Shown: positions 33,484-63,601 of the stretch, in pieces
Layout of the letters: every line of letters begins with the position of its first letter
How positions within the stretch are numbered: position 1 is the stretch's first letter
Assembly: GCA_030324005.1 (NCBI GenBank)
Contig: JARDVH010000097.1
Span: forward strand, 40,870,448-40,934,447
Direction of reading: 5' to 3'
Length of the DNA stretch: 64,000 nt
From: Negaprion brevirostris
Lineage: Eukaryota
Position numbers and translations under genes: made by a program
The notes under the pieces: model-generated
What the model saw: only the letters and a program-made list of their open reading frames with translations
What the model was told of the DNA's origin: nothing
Database searches by the model: none

Positions 33484-33693
<210 letters not shown>

Positions 33694-44533: not shown

Positions 44534-44669
44534 CTGAATTCTTCTCCAGCAGATGCCTTTTCTTTTGCAGCCGGTCCCGTTTTTCTTTCTCAAGTTTCTC
44601 TTTGGCCAATTTGGCAAGTCTCAGTTTCTCTGCTGCCTCTCTCCGCTTTGTGTTTTCTTTGATGGCTTG
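44534..44669 (-). CDS. DIAPH3: DIAPH3 internal exon (coiled-coil after FH2), 136 bp
   Basis: Acceptor ttgttttgctaaag. Translates QAIKENTKRREAAEKLRLAKLAKEKLEKEKRDRLQKKRHLLEKNS plus 1 nt. Donor CAG|gtaaaa. Phases fit both neighbouring exons. Confidence 0.93.
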
Positions 44670-45273: not shown

Positions 45274-45438
45274 CATGAACATAGTTCTGAAGTTACTGAT
45301 ATCACTAAAAAGCTCCTCCACTGTCACTTTCTGTGGATTGATAACAAAATAGTGCATCAAATCATGGTAAAGCTTCTCCATATTTTTGTGCATGTTGGCC
45401 AGTTTATGGTACTCTTCCCGGGCAAGTCTGGCAAATCT
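45274..45438 (-). CDS. DIAPH3: DIAPH3 internal exon (FH2 end), 165 bp
   Basis: Translates RFARLAREEYHKLANMHKNMEKLYHDLMHYFVINPQKVTVEELFSDISNFRTMFM (55 codons). Donor ATG|gtatgt. Confidence 0.95.
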
Positions 45439-46856
45439 GTGATGTATTGTTAAGGAAATGTCGAGTTGCTATACGAAAGAGAAAAAACATGAGAAATAAA
45501 CAAAATTATACGCTTGTAATTTTCATCATTTCCATTCACCCCCCCCAAATTTTTTCTTTTATATAATCTTGTTGAAATGCGAAAAATATCAAACACTGAT
45601 TTAATAATATTGACACTGCAAGATTAGGCTCAGAGTGTTTCCATGTCTTGCGTATTGAGCATTTTTTAATACAATAAGATAGCCTCTTTTTAAATGAATG
45701 TCTATTGCTTTTCTTTCTAAGGATTGTTGTTTCAAAGAGACTATGATGGTCAACCTGTTCAAGGCTTTGGTGAATGGCGATTAGAACCAGTCAATTGATT
45801 AAGTTTTTCATGATTGCAACCTCACCACTTTACCTCGAAAATGGAAAAACACTTGGATTTTTCTTAATTTATTGTCAAACCTACCAGAGTTGAAATAGCA
45901 TACAGAACATTACAAATGCAGTCTATAGTGTTACAGATTTGAGTTGCAATGGGATTTAGCAGGTTGGTAGGTTTGACAGTGTTTTCTGGGACTTGATTCA
46001 ACACAGTACTGGGAGGCGGGAGCAGGGGGATATCATAAGCATCACCAGAACAAATCATTTTGCAGTCTTTTCCTGTATATTGCACACTTTATTTTTTAAA
46101 AATNNNNNNNNNNNNNNNNNNNNNNNNNNNNNNNNNNNNNCACATACTAGCCATTAATAACAAACAAAGTATTAATGTTTCAAGTTAGGAAACAGTATTT
46201 TTCAAGATATTTCTATGTTACACAGAGGAACAAAAACATTGGAAAACACTAGGAAAAATAGTACTCTTCTTATCTGGTAGACTGGCTCTGACTTTTAGAA
46301 TTCATTGTAAAGAAACAGGGCTGGAATTTTACCAGCACACCTGCCCCAAAATTGGGGAGGGCAAAGTTCGCAGACCGGCTTTCTTCATTGGCCTCAGGCG
46401 GAATCTTATTAGCCTCGGGCTGGTGAGGTGGTGAAATTCCAGCATAAATTTTTCAGCTTTTGCAGAAGGAATAGGTGTAGCTTATAGTACTAATGGTTAT
46501 TAAGAAAATAAATTGGACAGCAACTTCTAGCGGCTACATAGTTAAAGGTGAAAATCAGAAAATTGATGTCCGATTTGTGCTGCGCCTCCATGACCTTCGA
46601 CACACTAGTATCTTGCCAGGATACTTGCCATCCAAGCACATGAAGGAAATGAATTTGTGGCACTTACGCACTACCTACACGAGCGAGTTAATTATTAACA
46701 ATGTGATTATTCTTATTTAAATTAAAAATAAACAGAAGCTCTAAGGCAATATCTAGATTATTACCTGACCCACATGTAAATTGGCATAGAGCAAATAAAG
46801 TTAGAGAGATGAATACGTGGAAAAAAGACTGGTATGGGAGAAATGGGTTCTCCCAT

Positions 46857-47132
46857 GCGGCATGGCAGCACAGTGGTTAGCACTGCTGCTTCACAGTGCC
46901 AGCGACCTGGGTTCAATTCCCGGCTTGGGGTCACTTTCTGTGTGGAGTTTGCATGTTCTCCCTGTGTCTGTGTGTGTTTTCTCCGGGTACTCCGGTTTCC
47001 TCCCACATTCTGAAAGACATGCTGGTTAGGTGGATTGACCCGAACAGACACCAGACTGTGGCAACTAGGGGAATTTCACAGTAACTTCTAATGTAAGCCT
47101 TACCTGTGACTAATTAATAAACTTTAACTTTA
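46857..47132 (+). mobile_element. tRNA-derived V-domain-type SINE with an L2-like tail
   Basis: A box tggcagcacagtggttagc, B box gggttcaattcc, core ctgtgtggagtttgcatgttctccc, tail aataaactttaacttt. Confidence 0.85.
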
Positions 47133-47519
47133 CTTACTGCCAAACAACATCTCTTGCACTAAACATTTACTGTTACAATCAAAATCAAAACTTTCAGGTT
47201 TTAAATACTGTTGGAGGTTTTGAAAATGTTTTCTTTCATAGATAGGAAGCCCAGCAGGTGGTTTTTAAGCCTATTGAGTTGGGGCCAGCTTTAGTAACTC
47301 CAATCCTGTTAGGCCCATTCTCTTGCTCTTCTCTCATGTTCCTGCAATTTCTTTCTTCTTGCATATATACAATTCCTTTCTCAAGAAAACTGATGAATCC
47401 ATTCCATCACCTCATTAAACAATACTTTCTACATGCCGGCTACTCATAGTGTAAGAAAGTTTTTCCTCACATCACCTCAAATTTATTCATCGATCACGTT
47501 AAATCTGTACCCTCTAGTT

Positions 47520-47775
47520 ACTGAATCCCTACAATGCAGAAAGACATTCGGTCCATCTAGTCTGTACCAGCTCTCCGAAAGAGCATCTTATTCAGGTCCA
47601 CACTCCCAACCTATCCCTGTAAAACCATGCACTTAGCATGGCAAATCCATCTAACCTATATGTCTTTTGCACTGTGGGAGGAAACCGGAGCACCCGGACG
47701 AAACCCACACAGACACAGGGAGAACAAGCAAACTCCATACAGACAATCACCCAAGGCTGGAATCAAAGCCAGGTT
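47520..47775 (-). mobile_element. HE1-like SINE, 5'-truncated
   Basis: tgtgggaggaaaccggagcacccggacgaaacccacacagacacagggagaac is the reverse of the SINE core. Confidence 0.8.
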
Positions 47776-49919
47776 CCTAATCACTGGGCCATCCATTATC
47801 AACCCTTCAGCTACTGGGAACAGTGGGCCATTGTGTTCTCGGAGTGGCAGTCAGCATCGTCAGATTGCCACTTTGTACCGACAAATCTGTGCTAAAATTC
47901 TTAAGCATCTGTCTCATCTGACCTTTCTGACTCAAGCAGGTGAGATTCAGACAGCACAGTGGGTCCCTGGGTCCAGCATCAAAATGTAAAAGAAGTAGAG
48001 TGAAGGATGACATGCTCCCTTGTTTACAGTACTAGCTGCACCATGCAGGTGCATTTAGAGGTCCCATTAAAAGTAACAGGACAGGGAGAGTGATCAGGTT
48101 ACCATGTTAGATTTTGGGTGGTGGTTGGTAGAGGGAGGTGTCAGACATTTGGGGATGAGTGGGGTCAAACATTTGAGGGATAGATGGTTGGGTTGGGGAG
48201 TTGGAGTTAGGTCAGGTTGGGGTCGGGGGTCAGGCTACGGGGAGGGTTCAAGTGTGGTTGCAGGAAGGTGGCTGCATTGGTGGTGGNNNNNNNNNNNNNN
48301 NNNNNNNNNNNNNNNNNNNNNNNNNNNNNNNNNNNNNNNNNNNNNNNNNNNNNNNNNNNNNNNNNNNNNNNNNNNNNNNNNNNNNNNNNNNNNNNNNNNN
48401 NNNNNNNNNNNNNNNNNNNNNNNNNNNNNNNNNNNNNNNNNNNNNNNNNNNNNNNNNNNNNNNNNNNNNNNNNNNNNNNNNNNNNNNNNNNCAGCATACA
48501 CAATTGTCCAGGGAAAGTTAGCCCTTCTAGATAATAGCCATGTAAACACTTACCAGAGAACTTCCGAGAAGGATTTTCCAATGCATCATTGAGGTATCCC
48601 CCAAATCTGATGCTAGGGAGCCAGGACATTATTGGGCATTTGCTCTTCATTCACTTTATGGGCGGATTCTCTGATCACATCTGTGGCTGCCCTGCTGCAA
48701 GTGTTCACTGTGGATTTGGTGTTCCAGCCAAAACTCCATTTACTTTCAGTGGCACCAGAGAATCCCAGCCGTGAATGAGGACAGAGATTTTCGAGATTTA
48801 TTTTTTGTTTGTATGCGCTTTAATCAAATCTCCTCTTCTTAGGAGATAGTTCTAGATAGAACGAACCCAGTATCTCCAATGTTTCCCATTAACTTTCATT
48901 CTTGGAACCATTTTAATAAATCTTATCAGCATTTATTCCAAAGCCTTTAGACTGTCTCTAAAGTGTGGTGTTCAGGATTGGATATGTTACTCCACTTGCA
49001 ACAGAACCAGTGTTTTGTATACATTTAAAATGATTTCCTTGTACTCCATGTCTCTACTGATAAAACCCAGAAACATTAATTTGTCCTGCCACATTTCAAA
49101 CTTTGTATACAAATACTACCATGTTTCTCCCATCTTGCATCCTCTTGAAGTTTATATCATTTAGCACGAATTGTCTCGCCTTCTTTNNNNNNNNNNNNNN
49201 NNNNNNNNNNNNNNNNNNNNNNNNNNNNNNNNNNNNTCCACGTTTTCATGCATTTCACAGGCTGCCCTTGAACTCTTGAACTTTACTATCTTTCTTCACT
49301 GTTTGCTACACTTGCACATTTTGTGTTATCTGCAAATTTCGAAGTCCAAGTCATTAACGTATATCAAAAACAGTAACTGTCCTAATACTGAACAATGGGG
49401 AGCTCCAATATACACCTTCCTTCAGTCTGCAAAATAGCCATAACTCAGTTTTTTTATCCCTAAGTCAAATCTGGCTCTGTGTTGACACTGTCCTTTTATT
49501 CCATTGGCTTCAACTTTTCTAACAAGCCCAATATGTGGAAAGGGAGAGTTAATTCTAGCCTTCTGGAATAGTTGTTCAGTTTCAAAATCGCAATTTAATT
49601 ATTTCTATCTCATCAGACAAAACTACATGTCACACACTACAGAAGTGGCAGGGGTAGGCACACTGATCACAGACAACCCTTCTGCCAGAAACAATAAGGA
49701 ATCTGTTCCCTTTCTACTGTTTAATTTGTGATTTGCTGTGTGCTAAAGTGTAATACCTTTCAAATACAACTCTGGGGGTGGGTGGGGGGGAAAGGAGGAG
49801 GAGAAGAACACAGAGATTGGAAAAAATGTCAAAGAGTGGAATTCCATAATCAAAAAGACGGAATTCTGCCATAGGTGGAAATTTCTCATCCCTGCTAGAA
49901 CTAGTGGACACAAACATAA

Positions 49920-50950
49920 AGGCTAGAATTCTCCTCAAAAAATTCTAAGTGTTGAATTTGCGTGAAAACTCAGGTAATTCACGCTGTTTTTTTTCAGAGA
50001 AGAACCTCCCACACTCTGTACACTGCAGAGGCCGCCAGTGTGAATCTCATTAAAAACTAGTAGGTGGGCCTATCCCCACTGGAGGGGCTGAAATCAGCAC
50101 ACTGAGTGGGCTACTATGCATGCATCAATCTGTCAGTGCTGGGATCAGCATATGTGCAGTGGCTCCACACTGTCATCTCCTGATTGCTGGCCAGCTCAAT
50201 CACTGGCCAGCCCCGCAACCTCAGATAGCTGGCCCTCCACCTTCCCATGGCCCGATTGCAGGACCCCCAGCCATTTCGTGGCCAGCCCCAAATCATCCTC
50301 TCCCGACGTAACTGATCTCTTCAATTCCACAGGGCTGAACCCNNNNNNNNNNNNNNNNNNNNNNNNNNNNNNNNNNNNNNNNNNNNNNNNNNNNNNNNNN
50401 NNNNNNNNNNNNNNNNNNNNNNNNNNNNNNNNNNNNTCCCACTCCCACCAATCACCCCCTAGAACCCACTCCCATATGCCCCACCCTCTGGCATGGCCCC
50501 ATACCAGATGGGCAATGCCAAGGTGCCTCAGGGCATTGACACTTTGCCCCTTGGGCAGTGCTGGTGGATGGGCTGGCACTGCTAAGGTGCCAATGCCCAG
50601 GGGCACCCCCACTACCTGGCCCTCTTGGGGCCACCGTTTGTGCTCCCTTCACTCCAGCAGGGTTGGGCCGCTAATTCCTTATTAGAGGGGAGCTACTCTA
50701 AACAACGCTGGAGTGGCGGGGGGGGAGGTGGTGACATGGGTAGATGCCTGCGGGCCCAGAGACCTGCTAATCACTTTTAAATTCTATGCAAATTACCATT
50801 TAAATAGTCTTTGTGCACCCCCATATCTCTGATGCAGCTGGAAATCTGGCACTGGGAGAACACACGCACAAACATGGCAAATTGGCTGACATGAGAATCT
50901 CCCAGCTCACCGCACTAAAAAATTAACACAAAAGGATGGGCAAATCGCAG
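49920..50950. mobile_element. MITE related to 15257-15690
   Basis: Shares attctcc...aaaattctaa.tgttgaatttgc.t.aaaact and ctcctgattgctggccagctcaatc with the 15257 copy. Confidence 0.7.
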
Positions 50951-53900
50951 CTGAGGTTTTGGACAAGAGATGCAATGTAGGGGCAATGTGAGGGAGAACC
51001 CTTTTTACATAGCGAGCAGTAACTTGATGTCCATGAGAGAGGTGGAACTAGAGATGATCAATGATTTCAAAAGTAAATTGCATGAGTACTTAAAGGAATA
51101 GGCAGGTAAAGTGGAATTATGGAATTGCTGGATTACTGTACGGAGAGCGAGCATAGACTCAATACGCTAAAGACCACCTCCTGTCCTGTAAATGAACTTA
51201 TGACTCTAAGCAGTATCGGGGCAGTTTGTAGATGCGCATGTTCTTTTGGCATGTTGTGGCATGATGTTAGTGTAGGTGCCAGTTAAAGTTATTTAGCCAC
51301 TACAAGAATGCCTTTCCCTTACAATACTAAGAAGATAGGAAGCAGTTGTTTATTCCAGAAGACAAACTGGCTGGGAATATTAGACAACATCATCAGGGCA
51401 CATTAAAAAAAAGTATCATTTTGCACCTGTTGACTTCAAGCAGCTGAAAGGACTTAAAGAGTGTGACACTGTTGGACACACCATCATTAACCTCGGGTGC
51501 TACAATNNNNNNNNNNNNNNNNNNNNNNNNNNNNNNNNNNNNNNNNNNNNNNNNNNNNNNNNNNNNNNNNNNNNNNNNNNNNNNNNNNNNNNNNNNNNNN
51601 NNNNNNTACAATGCTAATTTAATTTCAACTGCTTGTCAATTTAGGTCCCTGGCATAGTTTGACTTATTTCTCTTATGTACCAGTCTGTTATCATCAATGC
51701 TGTATAAACAAAAAGACATCTACTAAAATGGCTGGTGGAATTAAGAAAATTGACTTAATCGCCATTTTTATACCAATAAATTTTTTTAAAGATGTTTCCA
51801 TGATTGCAAAATTCTCTCGATAAAGGAGAAATCCAAAGTAATATCCCACAAGAAATGTGTCCTGTTACATTAAAGAGGAAAATTACTCCCAAAAAGAAAT
51901 GAGTGAGTAGACATGCTGCTGCAGGGCTCATGATGGAATGACAAGTTTTGCATGATTGTGACTGTGATTCACACAGAAGCCATCTGACGCTAACTTTTCA
52001 TAACTCTCTTTTCAAGCATTGGAATTTTTGCTCTTCAATTTTCTTTTCACACAGTATATTACTACTTCTTCCCCAGGGCTACAACCCCTATAAGGGCAAG
52101 GTGACCTACTTTCACCAACTCCAGGAATGTTGCTCTGAGCATGAGGCACCTGAGAGCTGATTCTTCCCCTGAGACACATTGCTGAGATGTGGTCTCAGTG
52201 ATATGGGCCTCAATCCACATTACAACACTGTCGAAAGTGTGGCATAATAGTGTTATAAAATATAGTGATTTAAAAAATAAATGTGGAGGGGTTTTTCTTT
52301 ATACTTTTGACCATTGCAGGACTTTGTCTTAAGAATTTTGTGGAAAATAAACTTCTGCCTTGACCTCACTTTAACCAAGTTTATGTTGTTGGGTTTATCT
52401 GCTTTAAAGGATCTGAGCAATAAGCTACTGAAGTGTAGTGCTGAGCTATTTGGTTAATTGCTTAATAAATTAAAGATCAGATGGACTGGTGCTTGGTTCT
52501 TTATACAATTATCTGACACAACATGCAAGCAAAAGCTTTCAGAAGTGGGTAATCTTATCCTAAATTATGTGATATTAATTTTTAAAAGTGAATATGAATC
52601 AAGATTTTTAAAAAAGTAATGGTTTATACATTAGGATGATTTATTAGAAAAGCTTAATGTTCAAGTATGAAAAGCAACTGAATCTAATTAAATACAAATA
52701 TTGTTTCATTACTTGTATATATATCTGGAGATTCAACCAATCTATATCAGGCCAAACTCTTAGTTTCTGACCTGTATATCACTTATCTATATTTGAAAGA
52801 GCGGGCAGGGTTTTCCACAGCCCCCCCACCCCCGCCCCACAATTCCTGTGGCTTGTTTTGTTTGTATTCTGACTAATTCCCTTCAATACTTAAATAGTCC
52901 AGTGAGGGGATTCATTGAATGCACATTTTCTGATAGGTTTCTGAAGTTAAACTAAGTCAATAACCATCAATTGAAATATTTTTTATTCAGCACAATTTTG
53001 TCTTTCTATTGTACAAACTACATAAAAGTATTTGTCTTTGAATTACATTTCCGTCTCACCTGCAGAATGTCAGTGTAATGCCGACTGGCTTTCAGGTTCT
53101 TCTGAGTTTTCAATGCACTACTGAATGATGTATGCAAAAAGGTGTTATTATACTCCTTTGGAAATGTATTGCGCTCATTTTTAATAAGCACGTTCATATT
53201 TTTGTACTCATCAAAGGGATGCAAGTACCAAAAATAGAACATTAACCTTTCCAGGTAGTCATGTCAGAGATAGCACAGGCAGGCGGAGAGTAATCTGCCA
53301 CAATATAGTACCAAATTCAGAAGAGAAAACCAGCAATTTTTCAATTTCCACACTAGCCATCCAAGATCTCTCAGGATTGCATTGCCAGTTAACGACAAAT
53401 TAGGGACTGTCTGTACTCATAGATCCATGCTCACTAGAAACTGTACAAATGTTCTATGATGGACTCTTGCAGCTACTAGATAACACTATTATCCCACGAA
53501 TCTATTCTGGATTGGAACTCAAGTATGGAGCAGCTTCTAATTCACAGTATTAATACAGAATCTTAATGAATAATTATGAATAATAATTAACCACAAATAA
53601 TTTTAATGCAATGATGCAATTTGTAGATTGTTACAGTTCCTAAAGAAATAGCTTAAAGTCTAATATTTCAGATTCCACCCAAATATATATGCATTTGGTT
53701 TCCTCTATTCAACTTTCTCCCTTCTTTTCTTGACCATGGCGAATCATATTTCAGTACTGACTCCCAAGTGCTGGCAGCACTGATGCCTTCCCAAATTTGT
53801 TGTTTGTGCACCTAAAGGGTGTTGCAAATTGTTAAAATACTGGAGGAAATTCAAGAATTGAATAAAATCAAGATTAAAAATGAAATTGGGATAATAAAGC

Positions 53901-55494
53901 AATAGGAGAAAAGAAGAACTGATAAGTGCAACTGTCTAAAGGGGTGTTTTGATAAATTATTGTAGCAGTAGGAAAACAAGTGTTTATCTAAGTAACTTGG
54001 AGTACAATGTTAGCAAGTGTGAGGTTATCCACTTTGGCAGAAATAATAGTAGGAGGGACTACTATTTAAAGGGCGAAAAGCTGCAGCATGCTACGGTGCA
54101 GAGGGANNNNNNNNNNNNNNNNNNNNNNNNNNNNNNNNNNNNNNNNNNNNNNNNNNNNNNNNNNNNNNNNNNNNNNNNNNNNNNNNNNNNNNNNNNNNNN
54201 NNNNNNTCTTATTGAATGGCGGGGCAGGCTTGAAGGGCTAGATGGCCTACTCCTGCTCCTATTTCTTATGCTCTTATGTTCTTGAAGAAAACTAAGGTAT
54301 ATAGAAGTAGGTGTTGGAATGAGAGAAGAGTTGAGTTCAAAATGCTGAGAGAAGAATCTGATTTGCATTTAAATGCTAAAAGCCTGGTCTGAGATGTTAT
54401 TAAAATAGCATAACATCAAAGGGAAAGGGCAGTAAAACTGTAGGAGAATAGCTGACTACAGCAGGAGAGAAATGCCTATGGTCAAAGCCACACCCAGCTG
54501 GAGAAAGCTGTCTCTCAAGTTATTGCTCAAAGCTATTGTTTTAAAAACTCTAATAGAGAAGAACCATGACATGGAACTGAAGAAGGTCTATCACCCACCT
54601 GTGGGTGGTAATCATATACTGGATTTAGATCATAAAGTTATATAATATTGGATGTTGTTTGGGAAAATGGGCATTTCTCAGAGTTCAGGAAACGTAGATA
54701 ATCGGGAACAACGATAAAATTCATGAGATACTATGTATGTATAGCCGTTATTGTAGTTAAGTGTATTGTTGAGTGTATTATAGTCCTTCTTGTAAGTTTT
54801 CTTTTAAGTCAATAAATATTCTTTACTAATTGATTACAACAAAGTTGGACTGTTTCTGATTGAGCCTATTTTTTCTCAAATTCTGCAAATGGAAAATATA
54901 TACCACTAATAACCAGTGTTCCAAATTACCCTTCTGGCTTTTGGGACATCCTCGAATTTAACATCAATGGAGTTCTTAACAAAAGGGAAAGAAGAAAAGT
55001 CATATGTGCATTTATATAACACCTCACCAAATCTCTGAGAAATATTCCAAATTGTTTCACATATCTTTGAAGTACTCGTGATATGTAGAGGAATGAAGTG
55101 GAGATTTTGGTTTCAACCGAGGCACCTATCAGACTGTAAGCAGTAATCACTAGGGTGGGGGGGAGGTGGCACAGGAATCACAATCACCTCTCCATTAAGA
55201 CCAATTAACATTTTTGAAAAGCTTGTTAAGAGATTGTCAGGGATCCAAGGTAAAATTTTTGAGGGGTAAGGTCGGTTATGCATATTTTGAAAAACAGATC
55301 ATCTGAATGGGGACAGCTACTTAGTGGAGAGCCAGCTATAGTTGCAATGTCAATGTTGCTAAGGACAACGGAATGGCTACCTGCCTAGAAGGAAGGCTCC
55401 AGCTAGCAATAGGAGCTTGGCTTTCAGATCTTGGGCTCCGAGTGGTGGTGAGGAGCAACTCCCTTTGTAGGAAAGAGTTAACTGGACTAGCTAA

Positions 55495-55970
55495 ACATTT
55501 GGCAACAAGAACAGGTCTGAGGTTAGGAATCCTGCAGAGAGTAATTCATCTCCTGACTCCCCAAAGCCTGTCCACAATCTACAAGTCAGGTGTGCGATGG
55601 AGTACCCTTCCCTTGTCTAGATGAGTGCAACTCCAACAACACTCAAGATACTTGACAAGCATCTAGGACAAAGCAACCCAATTGATTGGCACCTCATTTA
55701 TTCCTTCTGCTATCGATGCACAGTAGCAGTAATTTGTACTATCTCTAAAGTGCACTGTAAGAACTCACCAAGATTCCTTAGAAGCACCTTCCAAATCCAC
55801 GACCACGACAACAACAGCAGCTACATTGGAACGTCACCACATGGGAGTTTTCCCTTGAAGACACTCACCATTCTGACTTGGAAATGTATAGCCATCCCTT
55901 CACTGTCCCTGGGTCAAAATCTGGGAACTTCCTCCTGAACAGCAGTTAGCAACGTCCACACCCCATGCAT
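55495..55970 (+). mobile_element. 3093-type LINE fragment
   Basis: ggcaacaagaacaggtctgaggttaggaat...ctcctgactccccaaagcctgtccac matches 3288-3780. Confidence 0.75.
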
Positions 55971-57286
55971 GAATTTTAAAAAAGGCAGAACCAGGTATCA
56001 CGTTGGCAGGGAAGCGGAAAGAAGTGCATGAAGAAAACGCAGGCCAAACAGCATAATCTGCTGATAGAGCTACCTGGAGCTGACTGAGAATAAGTGCTGC
56101 AGAAGATTGAGACTCTTCAAATGATGTGACAGATACTTGTGCATTCATAGCAATTAGCTGTCAAAGTCACTTATGGCCTTGAACTTCTTCACTTCTCAAT
56201 CCTTCCAAGAATCAGCTATGAGCCTTCATATCATGAAAGATTGGTTGCATACCTCTTCATCTCACTAGTCACTGATGCTCTCTTTGCCAGCGCTGGATAG
56301 CACATTCATTCAATGAATGTCTCAATAGACACAAAGCATTGGGTTTTGCCTCCACTGCTGGATTCCTCTAGGTGAAAGGCATCCATTGACTGGTCAGTAA
56401 GATCCATCAATTCCCAAAATGGGAAGATAGATTCTAGCAGACAATGGAAATCTCTTGAAGAGATGGTTAGTGAACTCCGTACAGGAGACTGAGGCAGAGA
56501 CAATACTACCAATGTTGCCTGCTTAGCAGCACAACAGTTGAGTAGACCATTGGACTTCTGAAAATGTGATTCCAGTGAGTGGTCCAATAGGGTAGTGGCC
56601 TTCAATATTCTCCTGCAAGGATCTCGGTCATTTGTAGCATGTATATCAAATTGTTAAAAAAAGTGAGATAAACTGTCAATTCATGTCATTTGAGGGAGAA
56701 GTAGTGGTCAGGCCACTGGGGGAAATACCTATTCTTCTCATTGTGTAAACATCTTCCACTTTACCAGAGAGAGGTGAGCTGTCACATGGGAGTTGGAGCT
56801 CTGGCACCCAGGGAATAGCAGACTCCCACTTCTTCAATGCTGGCGTAGGTCTAATGTTGGAGATTGTGAGGGAGAGAATAGTTTCTTTTCTGGGACAATG
56901 GCAGGAAGATGTTGGGGGGAGGGGGGATGCTGACCTCATTCAAAGCTCATATGCAGTGTGGTCATTCTCCATGCCAACCTTGACATCTCAAAAGCAGCCC
57001 TTTGCCTAGTGTTCTGTTGCCCTTTGCACTACTGTTCTTTTTCTAGGGCTGGAATATGCCCTGGGGAAGCCACGAATGGCTCCACGCTTGTGCCTCTGGT
57101 CCANNNNNNNNNNNNNNNNNNNNNNNNNNNNNNNNNNNNNNNNNNNNNNNNNNNNNNNNNNNNNNNNNNNNNNNNNNNNNNNNNNNNNNNNNNNNNNNNN
57201 NNNNNNNNNNNNNNNNNNNNNNNNNNNNNNGTCACTTAACGGCTGGCTTGTGATTCCACTTGATATCCATGCTTATGTGTTGCAAA

Positions 57287-57460
57287 CACAGTAAGAAGTC
57301 TCACAACGCCAGATTGAAGTCCAACAGGTTTATTTGGTAGTAAATGCCACTAGTTTTCGGAACGCTGTTCCTTTGTCAGCTGAGTGGGGAGTTGGACTTT
57401 AACCTGGTGTTGTGAGAGTTCTTACTCTGTTTACCCCAGTCTGACACTGGCATCTCCAAA
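57287..57460. mobile_element. Head-to-head Penelope-like insertion with a 14-bp TSD
   Basis: Flanked by TTATGTGTTGCAAA at 57273-57286 and 57461-57474. The two arms are inverted copies of the same terminal sequence. Confidence 0.75.
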
Positions 57461-58094
57461 TTATGTGTTGCAAAACCAGACAGCTATATTTTTTTGATAG
57501 GAACAGCCTGTCTAATCCTTGTCCTGCAAACTCTAAGGTGTTTCTGTTGCTACCTCGAAGAATGGTGTCACCAGCCCCTTCCTGTGCTGTCAACCCATAG
57601 TGGTGGAGTCGTTATTTTGATTGGCGATCTTGTTGCTTGACGAAATATGTACCAGAGTATTTTTGAGCGCATCAAAATAAGTCTGGACTATAATTGCAAA
57701 CAACTGCACAGCAGCAGGAACATTCCATGCTCTAAGTGTGTTTTCTCTTAATGCCTTACTCCTTGCAGATACTTCTGTTGGAGATCGTGAATAGCAAATT
57801 AGGAAATACAATGGTACAGCAGTTAGACAGCATCTGTTTCTTGACTTTTGTTCANNNNNNNNNNNNNNNNNNNNNNNNNGGAGATTCCACATATTAAGGC
57901 CACCTTGCAACATTTTGTGCCACGAGACCAGTAGTTCCAGGAGGTATTCATGCTTATGAAAACCTTCCTTATGCATTGAATTTTGAAACAAGTCAGCAGG
58001 ATCTGTGACCAGGCTGCACCACTAACACAACAACGACGAACATTTCTTTAAATCACTAACCCTTCCATATCCTCACCCATGACTACTTGATTAT

Positions 58095-59340
58095 ACTCTG
58101 GCTACATGAGCAGGCCAGAGTCTGGGAATTCTGCACCAGCTCACTCCCCAAAGTCTGTCTATGATCCAAAAGGCACAAGTCAGAAATGAAATGGTATACT
58201 CTCCACTTGTCCAGCTGAGTGGAGATTTGGGTGGCACGGTGATACAGCGGTTAGCACTGCTGCCTCATGTCGCCAAAGAGGGTTCAACTCCAGCTTCTGT
58301 CTGTGTGGAGTTTGCACCTTCTCCCCCAGTCTGCATGGGTCTCCCCCCACCCACATACACACACACACAGTCCAAAGATGCGCAGATTAGGTTGATTGGT
58401 TATGCTACATTGATCCTCATGTCAAGGGGATTAGCAGGGTAAGTGTCTGGGGTTACGGGAATAGGGCCTGGGTGGGACTGTAGTCGGTACAGCCTTGATG
58501 GGCTGAATGGCCTCTTCCTCTACTGTGGAATTCTATTCTGTGATTCTATGAGTGCAGCTATTTTCAGGTACTTCTGCTGGAGATTGATCAAGAAGCTGAA
58601 CACTATCCAGAACAAAATAACTTGCTTGCTGGACACTCCATTCACCACCCTAAAAATTCTCTCCCTCATTTCATTACCAGCATACTGTGGCAACAGTGTG
58701 CATTGTATGACATTTAAATTTTATTTATTAGTGTCACAAGTAGACTTACATTAACACTGCAATGAAGTCACTGTGAAAATTCCCTAACCACCACACTATA
58801 GCACCTGTTCGGGTACACTGAGGGAGAATTTAGCATGGTCAATGCATCTAACCAGCACATCTTTAGTACTGTGGGAGGAAGACAGAGGAAACTCACACAG
58901 ACAAGGGGGGGTGGGGGGGGAGGAGAAATGTGTAGGCTCCACACAGACAGTGATCTAAGCTTGGGTCCCTGGCGCTGTGAGGCAGCGGTGCTAACCACTG
59001 TGCCACCCAAAATGCACTGCAACAATTCACCAGGGGTTCTTTGGCAGCACCTTCCAAACCCATGACCTGTAGCACCTATAGGAAGGTGAGCAGATGCTTG
59101 GGAACATCATAAGCTGCAATCTCCCCCCATCAAGCCTGATTTAAGTACATTGCTGTTCTTTCAGTGTCGCTGATTAAAATCCTGGAACTCCGTTCCTGAC
59201 AGCACGATGGCTGCAAATACATCACATGGATGTTTGCAATTCAAGAAGGCAGCTCACTACATTCTCTCAAGACAGTTAGGAACGAGCAATAAATGCTGGC
59301 CAAGTCAGTGATGCCTACATTCCGTGCAAGAATAAATAAA
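58095..59340 (+). mobile_element. 3093-type LINE fragment carrying two nested SINEs (about 58230-58547 plus, 58724-59008 minus)
   Basis: The LINE sequence resumes collinearly after each SINE. Both SINEs have ggttagcac.gctgcctca heads. Confidence 0.8.
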
Positions 59341-59590
59341 CGGATGTCAACACTGCTGTTTGCTTCAGGTTGTGTGGGCGACATAAAATGCTGGGGTGTA
59401 CATGACATTCCCACAGTATTCCCAGCTTTCACCATTCTGGACTTGTGGCCTTTTGTTTTTACAAAAGTGCACATGATGAACACCTTGCTATTTTTATGCA
59501 TTCCATCATTGAAATGAAAGCATTTTAAATAGAAGTTCTATCTCAGAATGCGATTATTGTTCTGAATCAGATGATGGCGCAAATCATTGA

Positions 59591-60753
59591 TGCAGTTAAA
59601 GTATGCAATCCCAGGAACATTGTAATCTCCACAAATTTTGTGGCTTCCCTGACATTTCACAGCCTGGCCTTCCAGCTTGACATTCATAACAATGAACTCA
59701 TGGCACTTTAAAAGCATTTTGAGCCTGTTTTCTCTGCGTCTCCCTGTTGTGAAGAGAGCGATAATGGCAGTATATCTCTGACTCCTCTGTTCCAAGCATG
59801 GCTGTCATCAGCTTTGTTGAGGACTTCACATAGGCACACATCTGCGTTACACAATTACTACTTTCAAAAATCCAATCAGAGTCCTTTACTGTACATAGGG
59901 TCTTGTCACAATTTGGAGGTATCAACAGGCTGTGCATGCAGTAGCCCAACAAGCAGTTCTTAAAGTAACTGCTACAGGTCATTCAGAAAAAATATACAAG
60001 TTGTCATTTTAAAGAGAGGAACATACAGACATTTTCAGCCTGTTGCTTCTCATCTGTGCCCTCCCTCCATCACATCACAATTACCTACTCCAACCCTCTT
60101 TAATTCATGGCTCTGTGAAGGAGATGCCAGATTTCACAATCACCCCCAATAGATAAGCTGCTTTCAGTATTCACAAATCAATAATAATGGGGCTTGGCTC
60201 TTAACTTTCTGTGACTGGTTGCTCCATTGTGCATTAATTTTAAACATAAAAGTTACAAAGATGCATTACGAATGCAATTGGATGTTTCAACAAGCATGCT
60301 AACTAGTACAGGACATACTGCTGTCTCTGAGTCTGATAAATTGGATGAATCTATTTTAGATCAATGATCAATAGAAGAATGATGTTAAAACTGATGTCGG
60401 AAAAAAACACATTAATGTCCCTTCTCCCACATTTGAAAGATATTTCATCATACATTCAGCACTATGAATACATAATTAAATTAACCCTATAAATTGGTAA
60501 AAATAGAACTTGCTACTGCTTCTTTCTCTTATTTTCTGTCAATTGTAATTTAAAGCAAATAAGTTATACAGTTCGTAATAAATGAAGTAAATTACATTTT
60601 AATTGATGTTTCACATCGAGTTGCCTTATACGAAATTAGCTAAGTAATTGCAGTTGAAGTATGCAATTCCAGGAACATTGTAATCTCCACAAATTTCGCG
60701 GCTTCTCTGAAATTTCACAGCCTGGTCTTCCAGCTTGACATTCATAACAATGA
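59591..60753 (+). repeat. 105-bp direct repeat pair (59591-59695 and 60649-60753)
   Basis: Ungapped manual alignment, 7 mismatches in 105 bp. Confidence 0.92.
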
Positions 60754-62414
60754 TCATATCACATTCAATATGTCCTAAAACATTATAGAAACCTACAGCA
60801 CAGAAAGAAGCCATTCATCCCATCGAGTTATGTATGATTACATTATGGTAATTAATAAATAACCAAATGCAGCTGCAGATCACATTACATTTCTCACCCA
60901 CCCAATCTGTAATGTGCACTGTGATGAAAGTCGCCAGGACTGATCAGAGAAAGCCACAGTTCTAAGCATGATGAATTGTTCCACTAGACTAGACATCCTT
61001 TTTCTATTTGTGATTTTGCTTTGACTTCTGTTGGTTGACTTTACATTTATCTTTTTTCATCTTGTTCCACCAGAGAGCAGTTCCTTCAGTTAAATTTTGA
61101 CAAATAAATATAGTGCTGACCTGCTGCTCTGAACATTATTAATTTAAAGAGCATAATCCTTAGAAGATTTACAAAACGTCAGCATAATTTTCTTATGTTT
61201 GTTACAATTTAAAGCTTACAAGATTAATATATTTTGGGACACTAGTTTTAAAATGTAGGGTAAAATGTAGGACAGGTCAGATGGTCACCTGACCTGTCCG
61301 ACAATCTGCTTGAAAGTAAACTCAGGTGTTTTTATTGTTACAGACCAAAGAAAGGCTTAGAATGTTTTACTAAGAAGAAGGTGCAAGCCATATGTGCTTG
61401 GAGATAATGGCAGCAGTTTCTGAGTTTACAATGAGATTTCTCCAAAAGGCTAAGAAAGGTGTTGTAGGTACCAGGTTGTAATGCTTGTGCTGTAAACTGT
61501 GCGCTTACTATTAAGACAAAAGGGAGTGGAGGTCAAGAATAGTTAACACACAATTCCACCTAATCCAAGATTAATTTAATAATCATTAAAAAAGGCTTTA
61601 CTGCTGGTGGTGGATTTAAGAAATGCAGTGAAAACTGAGGAAAGTGCCTAGAAACAGTCAACATTACGGCTCAGTGAAGTAGGAATATGGGAACCATTTG
61701 GAAGCTGGAAGCATTTATAGTCTTTCTGTGATTAGGGCTGGAATTTGGTGGGGAGTGTGATGTGTGGTAAGTATAACAGGGGAAAATTTTTCTTTGTAGT
61801 TTTAAGTACAAGTTGCCTCCAAAAAAGAAAAATAATGCTTAGTCAAAGGTGCTTTTAGTTACTTGTTATAGCAAACTTTTCAAAATGAAAACTTGATGTA
61901 TCGTTCTTTTAACTATTAACTGGACAATTGTTCTTTTAAAAAGAAAGGTTAATGGTCTCCAGGGAGATCACAACATTATTTAATTGCTGTCAGGCATTGG
62001 CTTGAATTCTTTGGCTGTTCATGCCAGGGGAATTCTCAAGTCCCACCAGCAGTGGGTTTCCCGGTGGTGTGGGGTGCGATCACCTCCTGCTGCTGAGAAA
62101 CACGCAGCTGGGAGACCAGAGAATCCTGCCTATTATTAACTTGTACAGTGCATGTTTATTACGGCTTTAAGATAAATATTTCACAAAATGCTTCCACTTC
62201 CATATATTTTTGTTCCATATTCCTAGACACTAAAAAAGCTGTACAACTTATCTCTCACATAAAAAAAATACATTAATTAAAAAACAAATGTCAATTAGTC
62301 CAAAAATGTGTATGTGGGTGTGTTGTGTATGTGCATAGTATAGGGTGGTTTGTGTGTGTGTGTGCATGTGTGTGTGTGTAATTTTATGTGGTGTGTATCA
62401 TGTTCAGAATTCTG

Positions 62415-62995
62415 AGGGATCCAGGTATTCTCGTGCATGTGTCACAAAAGTAATTAAGAATGTAATATAATGTTATCCTTTATTACGAGAGGAATCGAAC
62501 ATAGAAGTAAGGCTGTCTTACTTCAGTTACACAGGGCATTGCTGAGACCCCACTATGTGCTGTTTTGGTCTCCTTATTTAAGTAAGGGTGTAAATGAATT
62601 AGAGATGGTTCAGAACAAGTTTACTAGATTGATACCTGGAATGAGTGAAAGATTGGACACATTTCCACTGGAGTTTAGAAGAACGAGGGATGACTTGAAT
62701 GCAGTATACTGAACAGTCTTGACCAGATGGATGCAGAAAGGATATTTCCACACAGATGAGGAAATTTTTTTCTCCGTGAGAGATGTGCAACTTTGGAATT
62801 CTCTGCCTCAGGTGCTGGTGAACGCAGGGTGAATGAATATTTTTAAAGCAGAGACAGATAAGTTATTGTTAGATAAGAGAATCATTTGTAGATGGGAATG
62901 TGGAATTTGAAATACCAACAGGTCAGCTATGATCTTGTTGAATTGTGGAACATGCTTGGCAGACCAAAAGCCTACTTGTGGCTCCTCTTTTATCT
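62415..62995 (+). mobile_element. CR1 3' fragment
   Basis: ORF 62470-62712 MLSFITRGIEHRSK.VLLQL.RAL.RPH...FWSPYL...LE.VQ.KFTRLIPGM, followed by a CR1 3' UTR. Confidence 0.85.
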
Positions 62996-63476
62996 GTTTG
63001 TATTGTTTTTGTAAGATTTTAAGCTTTTGGTCCTTTCTGTTTAATGCTGAGGAAACATAGGCAGGTCCAGACATCATTAAATTGCATAGGATGATCTAAC
63101 CATTGCAAGCTTTCCACATGATATCCGCCACTTCAGAGGTCAAACAAAGTCATCTATGAAATAAAGCTTTTACCACATTCAAAAATGGAATTAGTATTGA
63201 AACATATTTTGCCTACCCTGCAAATCCTACTCAGAATCAGCATTTAGAATCACCATATCTGTAGGCTAAATCTATTTTGAAAATTGCTTTATAATAGTAT
63301 AATGCTATTATTCATTCCTTCATTAACTCACTCTCATATGCAGGCCCCTCAGCTTTAGAAAATGATTAATATCAGTGATGAGGCAGCAGTTTCACTGATG
63401 CATTAAAAAAAAATAAACTTACTTAAGACTCATCTAAATATTGCTCCATGAGCTGTGCAGCCGTCAGGAAGGATAT

Positions 63477-63601
63477 GGACATCTTTGTTACAAACTTGTC
63501 ATGCAAGTCCTCTGGTGGAGGAAAAGTTTCTAAATCCTTTTCGAGCTGTTGAAGCTGTTTCTCCATCTGCTTAAGGTTCTTCTCCAAGTTTTCTACACAT
63601 A
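63477..63601 (-). CDS. DIAPH3: Diaphanous-related formin 3, internal exon (FH2 domain, C-terminal part), 125 bp
   Basis: Acceptor ttttgtcttccttttatag. Translates (V)CVENLEKNLKQMEKQLQQLEKDLETFPPPEDLHDKFVTKMS, which matches the recalled DIAPH3 segment LETFPPPEDLHDKFVTKMS. Ends in phase 0 at ATATCCTT. Confidence 0.95.

Follow-up and report, generated by a model that had tools for sequence, protein, structure and literature searches.

The diaphanous-related formins are listed as 100% minor-intron genes (PMC6865273), and two minor introns are catalogued in each of DIAPH1, DIAPH2, and DIAPH3 of human and mouse (PMC6717393). The second minor intron of human DIAPH3 (hg38 chr13:59833272-59839323) is classified as AT_AC (PMC8280824) and has a length of 6,052 nt and a donor score of 97 (PMC6717393). 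The equivalent AT-AC introns of the human paralogs span 100,276 nt in DIAPH2 and 1,111 nt in DIAPH1 (PMC6717393, PMC8280824), and mouse Diaph2 has a minor intron of 80,016 nt (PMC6717393). Here we describe an AT-AC intron at positions 45439..63476 on the minus strand of a 64,000-nt stretch of the genome of the shark Negaprion brevirostris ("the window," G000:C97:40870448-40934447). We assign it with high confidence as the orthologous counterpart, in cartilaginous fish, of human DIAPH3's second AT-AC intron (in FH2), likely excised constitutively by the U12-dependent spliceosome, because its splice signals, their placement at the exon ends, the phase-0 join, exon flanks identical to human, the same signals in the shark paralogs, and the presence of 4 minor small nuclear RNA (snRNA) genes all point to this assignment. 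The intron is already catalogued in human and mouse, and the shark copy is the expected ortholog. A search of the open-access literature turned up no article specifically on this intron, nor one on the conserved segment within it that is described below. The MIDB classification covers 263 species, Callorhinchus among them (PMC11347168), and the supplement of PMC10639083, searched for shark names, gave no entry.

The closest named proteins are the DIAPH3-like proteins of Heterodontus (87%), Heptranchias, Callorhinchus, and Chiloscyllium, and mapping of the Heterodontus protein on the genome gives the gene an extent of about 512 kb. With few exceptions, the named homologues are DIAPH3 among the matches listed (the best 120 of 216 in one search). 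The assignment to DIAPH3 is thus based on named matches and identical flanks, not on a phylogenetic tree. Upstream of the intron lies exon A (63477..63601, minus strand, 125 nt), which encodes a part of FH2 ending in ...DKFVTKMS and has a GT-AG-type acceptor upstream, while exon B (45274..45438, minus strand, 165 nt, RFARL...RTMFM) encodes the end of FH2 and is followed by a GT donor. Together they match positions 278-317 and 319-371 of the 372 positions of Pfam FH2, and exon B also matches solved mDia1 FH2 chains.

Exon A ends in AAGATGTCC and is directly followed by the intron start ATATCCTTCC at 63476. Both this donor sequence and the donor of the human ortholog mark 63467..63476 (minus strand) as a U12-type 5' splice site, and ATATCCTTC agrees at 8/9 positions with the donor consensus RTATCCTTT, which is given in PMC1635337 together with the branch site consensus TTCCTTRAY. 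The 3' end of the intron reads TTCCTTAAC-AATACATCAC and closes at 45439 with the terminal AC (45439..45440, minus strand), after which exon B starts AGATTT. Its branch motif TTCCTTAAC (45449..45457, minus strand) fits the branch site consensus, is the sole exact copy within the window, and leaves 10 nt to the intron end. Either one of its branch A candidates lies 11 to 12 nt from that end, compared to an optimal U12 distance of 11 to 13 nt (PMC3584512). Only AATACATCAC stands between the branch motif and the 3' end, without a distinct pyrimidine tract; a pyrimidine tract is found upstream of the branch motif and ends in TAG at 45469. The join of exons A and B is stop-free in one of three frames, in phase 0, and the AT and AC termini restore the homologous frame in the joined reading CVENL...DKFVTKMS|RFARL...RTMFM.

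Neither splice motif by itself is above chance in the 64-kb window: ATATCCTT is found 6 times versus 2.87 expected (at least 6 in 5/100 shuffles), and TTCCTTRAY-N6-16-AC is found twice versus 2.21 expected. The excess over chance is the placement of both motifs exactly at exon ends that are fixed by protein homology, with a chance of about 2e-5 for each signal and about 4e-10 jointly. The first-pass annotation of this DNA had claimed a consensus U12 donor, a branch site about 10 nt before the AC, and a phase-0 join within FH2, all of which are confirmed in the sequence, and its assignment to the U12-type AT-AC class is supported by donor, branch site, AC distance, and frame. A second, perfect ATATCCTTT lies 731 nt into the intron (62737..62745, minus strand) and is possibly a decoy donor but likely a chance occurrence; we rejected it since no AC precedes it and the motif count is within chance. 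An AG is located at 45437-45438, 2 nt past the AC, and its use would make an AT-AG intron with a frameshift and an early stop. This AC|AG arrangement is common to all 3 shark and all 3 human DIAPH genes. Selection on the AG is not needed to explain it and was rejected, because MSIF stands at this place in 5/128 proteins and isoleucine codons cannot start with AG.

The likeness to the human DIAPH3 intron extends to gene, codon, phase, termini, and FH2 position. The exon flanks are letter-identical over 10 nt before the donor and 6 nt after the AC, and the human intron likewise has 10 nt from its branch motif to its end (both PMC8280824). Differences are few: the human intron has about one third of the shark length, position +9 as the sole donor difference is C in shark and T in human, the full shark branch motif TTCCTTAAC corresponds to TACCTTAAC in human, and read-through runs for 17 codons in shark but stops after ISF in human. 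Conserved position and phase, as proposed in the first-pass annotation, are thus supported against human DIAPH3, and the donor also against mouse Diaph3. Comparison with human DIAPH1 and DIAPH2 shows equivalent introns of the same position and class, judged by flanks, in paralogous genes that have no GT at -4. Minor introns of great length are accordingly normal for this family.

Two shark paralogs, on C193 and on C110/C137, both carry ATATCCTT after KMS or KMT as well as TTCCTTAAY...AC|AG, and the equivalent intron of the C193 paralog spans 42,008 nt. In addition, the first minor intron of the family (phase 2, in the FH3 region) is AT-AC in all 3 shark paralogs, with lengths of 2,161, 2,719, and about 13,200 nt and the DIAPH3 copy at C97 ~41191100-41193261. 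Exon B of the C110 paralog is found in a 1.7-kb piece between gaps on C137 (G000:C137:23861595-23861756), and the neighbouring exons on C110 flank a 4,611-N gap (G000:C110:69412373-69416983) where exon B belongs. Its location on C137 is therefore likely a case of mis-scaffolding.

Removal by the minor spliceosome is likely given that the same AT-AC intron stands at the same codon as in human DIAPH3, and genes for U12, U11, U6atac, and U4atac are present in the shark genome above the Rfam cut-off. The matches over this cut-off number 14 for U6atac, 3 for U12, 4 for U11, and 1 for U4atac; many of the U6atac matches are probably retrocopies. A duplex of 8 bp is possible between the genome's own U12 and the branch site, and its own U6atac can form 7 pairs with the donor. 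By the well-known roles of the snRNAs in U12-type splicing, the donor would be paired first by U11 and later by U6atac, while U12 would pair to TTCCTTAAC with the branch A bulged. In the known pathway, U11/U12 would recognize donor and branch site together, U6atac would take the place of U11, and the AC about 11 nt downstream would be selected by distance (PMC3584512).

When minor-spliceosome activity drops, the intron would be expected to be retained, as judged from the human ortholog. The unspliced reading stops 17 codons into the intron, at FH2 position 317 of 372 and before the DAD. The remaining coding sequence within the window comprises, after exon B, a next exon (44534..44669, minus strand, QAIKEN...EKNS) and an exon matching the DAD region (33558..33653, minus strand), both placed by protein homology. 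Because the read-through stop precedes the end of FH2, the DAD, and further junctions, such an mRNA is predicted to be degraded, and full-length protein with the FH2 end and the DAD would then drop. Retention of the human ortholog rises from 0.11 to 0.66, with an mRNA log2 change of -1.93, upon 48 h of CENATAC depletion and from 0.12 to 0.24 in patient cells (both PMC8280824); it rises from 0.05 to 0.27 in ZRSR2-mutant samples. Such gating is shown for human cells whose minor spliceosome is impaired, and only there.

Several observations weigh against our assignment or fail to add to it. U12 forms more stable pairings with at least 8 other sites of the intron than with the branch site, so that position rather than energy marks the latter, and the pairing of U11 with the donor could be computed in part only because part of the U11 hit reads N. 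In Table S6 of Olthof 2024 (PMC11347168), the first minor intron is the sole one of DIAPH3 to be classed as responsive, which is at odds with the CENATAC retention rows of PMC8280824. No junction read was found for this species: 4/4 presumed-RNA runs are blank at the intron 3' end, which is no evidence either way. The 8 gaps inside the intron could hide sequence. Finally, related proteins differ in the boundaries that they show. We compared 164 related proteins, of which one source search contributed the best 120 of 216 hits, after exclusion of P0001, P0002, and one stray hit of 7,917 aa. Of these, 129 speak for the assignment, with the AT-AC register and without an inserted exon, whereas 17/164 show a GT-AG register that reads KIF, 12/164 read through the donor, and 6 are without the motif. 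Indirect support for use of the junction comes from the 22 Logan-derived proteins, for which the corresponding numbers are 14, 0, 4, and 4. Three of them, close to this gene, come from contigs of 2.3 to 2.6 kb that cover both exons and therefore look spliced.

Srsf10 offers a described precedent for a more elaborate arrangement, in which the AT-AC donor upstream leads to the coding mRNA and a GT donor further downstream is preceded by a stop (PMC7244321), and vertebrate twintrons have a similar layout (PMC3564746, PMC8329584), with DIAPH not among the genes in the main text of PMC3564746. At the shark locus, the first 54 nt of the intron (63423..63476, minus strand) encode 17 residues (ISFLTAAQLMEQYLDES) and then TAA (63423-63425). 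A candidate competing U2-type donor GTAAGT follows at intron position +55, directly after this in-frame stop (63417..63422, minus strand), and a candidate U2-type acceptor of pyrimidine tract and TAG lies 30 nt before the terminal AC (45469..45490, minus strand). Both U2-type sites at the location of the U12 intron are known as sequence features, whereas use of the major donor has been demonstrated for Srsf10 (PMC7244321). The U12 intron could thus be real and in addition enclose a conserved major donor behind a stop, forming a nested twintron or a switch like that of Srsf10 towards a non-productive or DAD-less form, though we regard this as unlikely.

What speaks for this possibility is a resemblance to fish. 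Bowfin RefSeq isoform X1 and a sturgeon model have tails that are likewise 17 residues long and start with ISFLT. By back-translation, intron positions +10 to +54 need 13/45 changes to encode the bowfin tail (P0019) and 15/45 to encode the sturgeon tail (P0016), compared to a background of 24 to 25 changes and to 25 to 31 changes for the paralog introns; only 17 (bowfin) and 67 (sturgeon) of 200,000 random segments are as close. The readings of shark, bowfin, and sturgeon all end after exactly 17 residues, and the chance of a first stop there is 0.024. Low amino acid identity (4/14 with bowfin) suggests a constraint at the level of RNA rather than protein. GTAAGT is rare, with 5 copies in 17,300 intron bases, and PMC8280824 marks an alternative donor within the human ortholog as increasing upon depletion of CENATAC. 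It is accordingly conceivable, if doubtful, that the 54-nt segment has been kept since the split of sharks and ray-finned fish as a part of such a switch. That the FH2 intron of fish DIAPH3 is an ancient minor-versus-major switch that sets full-length versus degraded or DAD-less output is an equally tentative proposal.

Against it stands that the comparison is post hoc and made by back-translation of protein models, and that bowfin, gar, and sturgeon are mutually related and amount to about one comparison. The gar tail matches weakly, as 2,417 of 200,000 random segments come as close, read-throughs of the mammal-like type already end with ISF or ISFDI, and GTRAG does not occur in the first 400 nt of the paralogs. 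The bowfin isoform may reflect no more than an intron retained in the model, and cryptic U2 sites are frequent in the vicinity of minor introns and in many cases stay silent (PMC8329584). The 54-nt segment gives one match in a search of the genome, scans of metagenomes for DNA of relatives gave 0 loci, and a search of the read-through peptide against 50% representatives gave 3 hits and nothing new. Folding of the donor, conserved-segment, and acceptor regions shows no special structure (z from -0.26 to +1.41). The read-through peptide resembles the first residues of exon B, which was dismissed as a coincidence, because the donor itself dictates ISF and the paralogs are different. The sense strand of the intron also carries 15 AATAAA hexamers, the first about 1 kb in, which would be relevant only with a terminal isoform formed by read-through.

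Less probable still is that the long intron acts as a physiological rate-limiting gate tuned by transposon-driven length. Slow U12 splicing has been proposed as rate-limiting (PMC3584512), and the human ortholog shows a basal retention of about 0.11 in HeLa (PMC8280824). However, the table of 150 minor introns retained in mouse tissues does not include Diaph3, and the retained introns are the shorter ones (both PMC6717393). The claim of the first-pass annotation that the intron gates production of protein with a complete FH2 and DAD is not shown here: the human ortholog is retained upon depletion of CENATAC and in ZRSR2-mutant cells, but Diaph3 falls outside the mouse table. The length of the shark intron does not single it out either. 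Its nominal 18,038 nt are approximate because of the 8 N-gaps (738 N) inside, and 7 of the 24 gaps between mapped exons of this gene are longer than 18 kb, with a median of about 15 kb, though some of these gaps may hide unmapped exons. The 18-kb length is thus unremarkable and likely follows the long-intron habit of a 512-kb gene, just as surveys find that minor introns vary in length with major introns and with the size of the genome (PMC10639083, PMC7367187).

Expansion with many transposon insertions, also claimed initially, holds up in part. At least 12 interspersed-repeat blocks were found, and the 12 repeated blocks cover at least 18% of the non-N intron bases, a lower bound obtained by comparing the intron to 335 kb of other loci and to the window itself. 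The donor is 2.7 kb away from its nearest block, and the acceptor 1.4 kb. This repeat content is like that of the neighbouring introns, as the next large major introns reach 14% and 24% in the same test, which counts against length-tuned gating. None of the 94 intronic open reading frames (94 of 100 listed, at least 55 aa) reaches the Pfam cut-off for a transposon or other domain, so the transposon origin of the repeats is presumptive. No tandem repeats were found in 47100-63476. An Rfam scan of the window gave 0 matches and hence no known RNA gene hosted there.

An ordinary GT-AG intron is a very remote alternative: a shadow GT 4 nt upstream of the U12 donor (63479..63480, minus strand) and the AG 2 nt downstream of the AC (45437-45438) do keep the frame and turn KMSRF into the KIF of the 17 database proteins mentioned above, but 16 of these 17 are UniRef-only entries, RefSeq gives KMSSF for the same species (elephant shark, platypus), the Logan-derived proteins contain no KIF, and the C110 paralog and human DIAPH1/2 have no such GT while keeping the AT-AC signals. 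GTCCAT is moreover a poor U2 donor. The KIF entries include DIAPH3 of elephant shark, coelacanth, platypus, and lynx (P0006-P0010, P0100, P0129, P0138-P0141, P0147-P0151, P0156), and their readings are likely a mis-annotation with shifted GT-AG boundaries. U12 introns are known to be missed by annotation pipelines (PMC1635337).

As it stands, the AT-AC intron of shark DIAPH3 adds cartilaginous fish, as would be expected, to the known range of a catalogued human intron. It also exposes a practical trap, in that a GT-AG shadow that preserves the frame leads some gene models to KIF in place of KMS(S/R)F. If the competing donor at +55 were true, the few conserved switches between minor and major splicing would be joined by one in a cytoskeletal gene, and one could test directly at this locus whether minor introns control their genes or are simply inherited.

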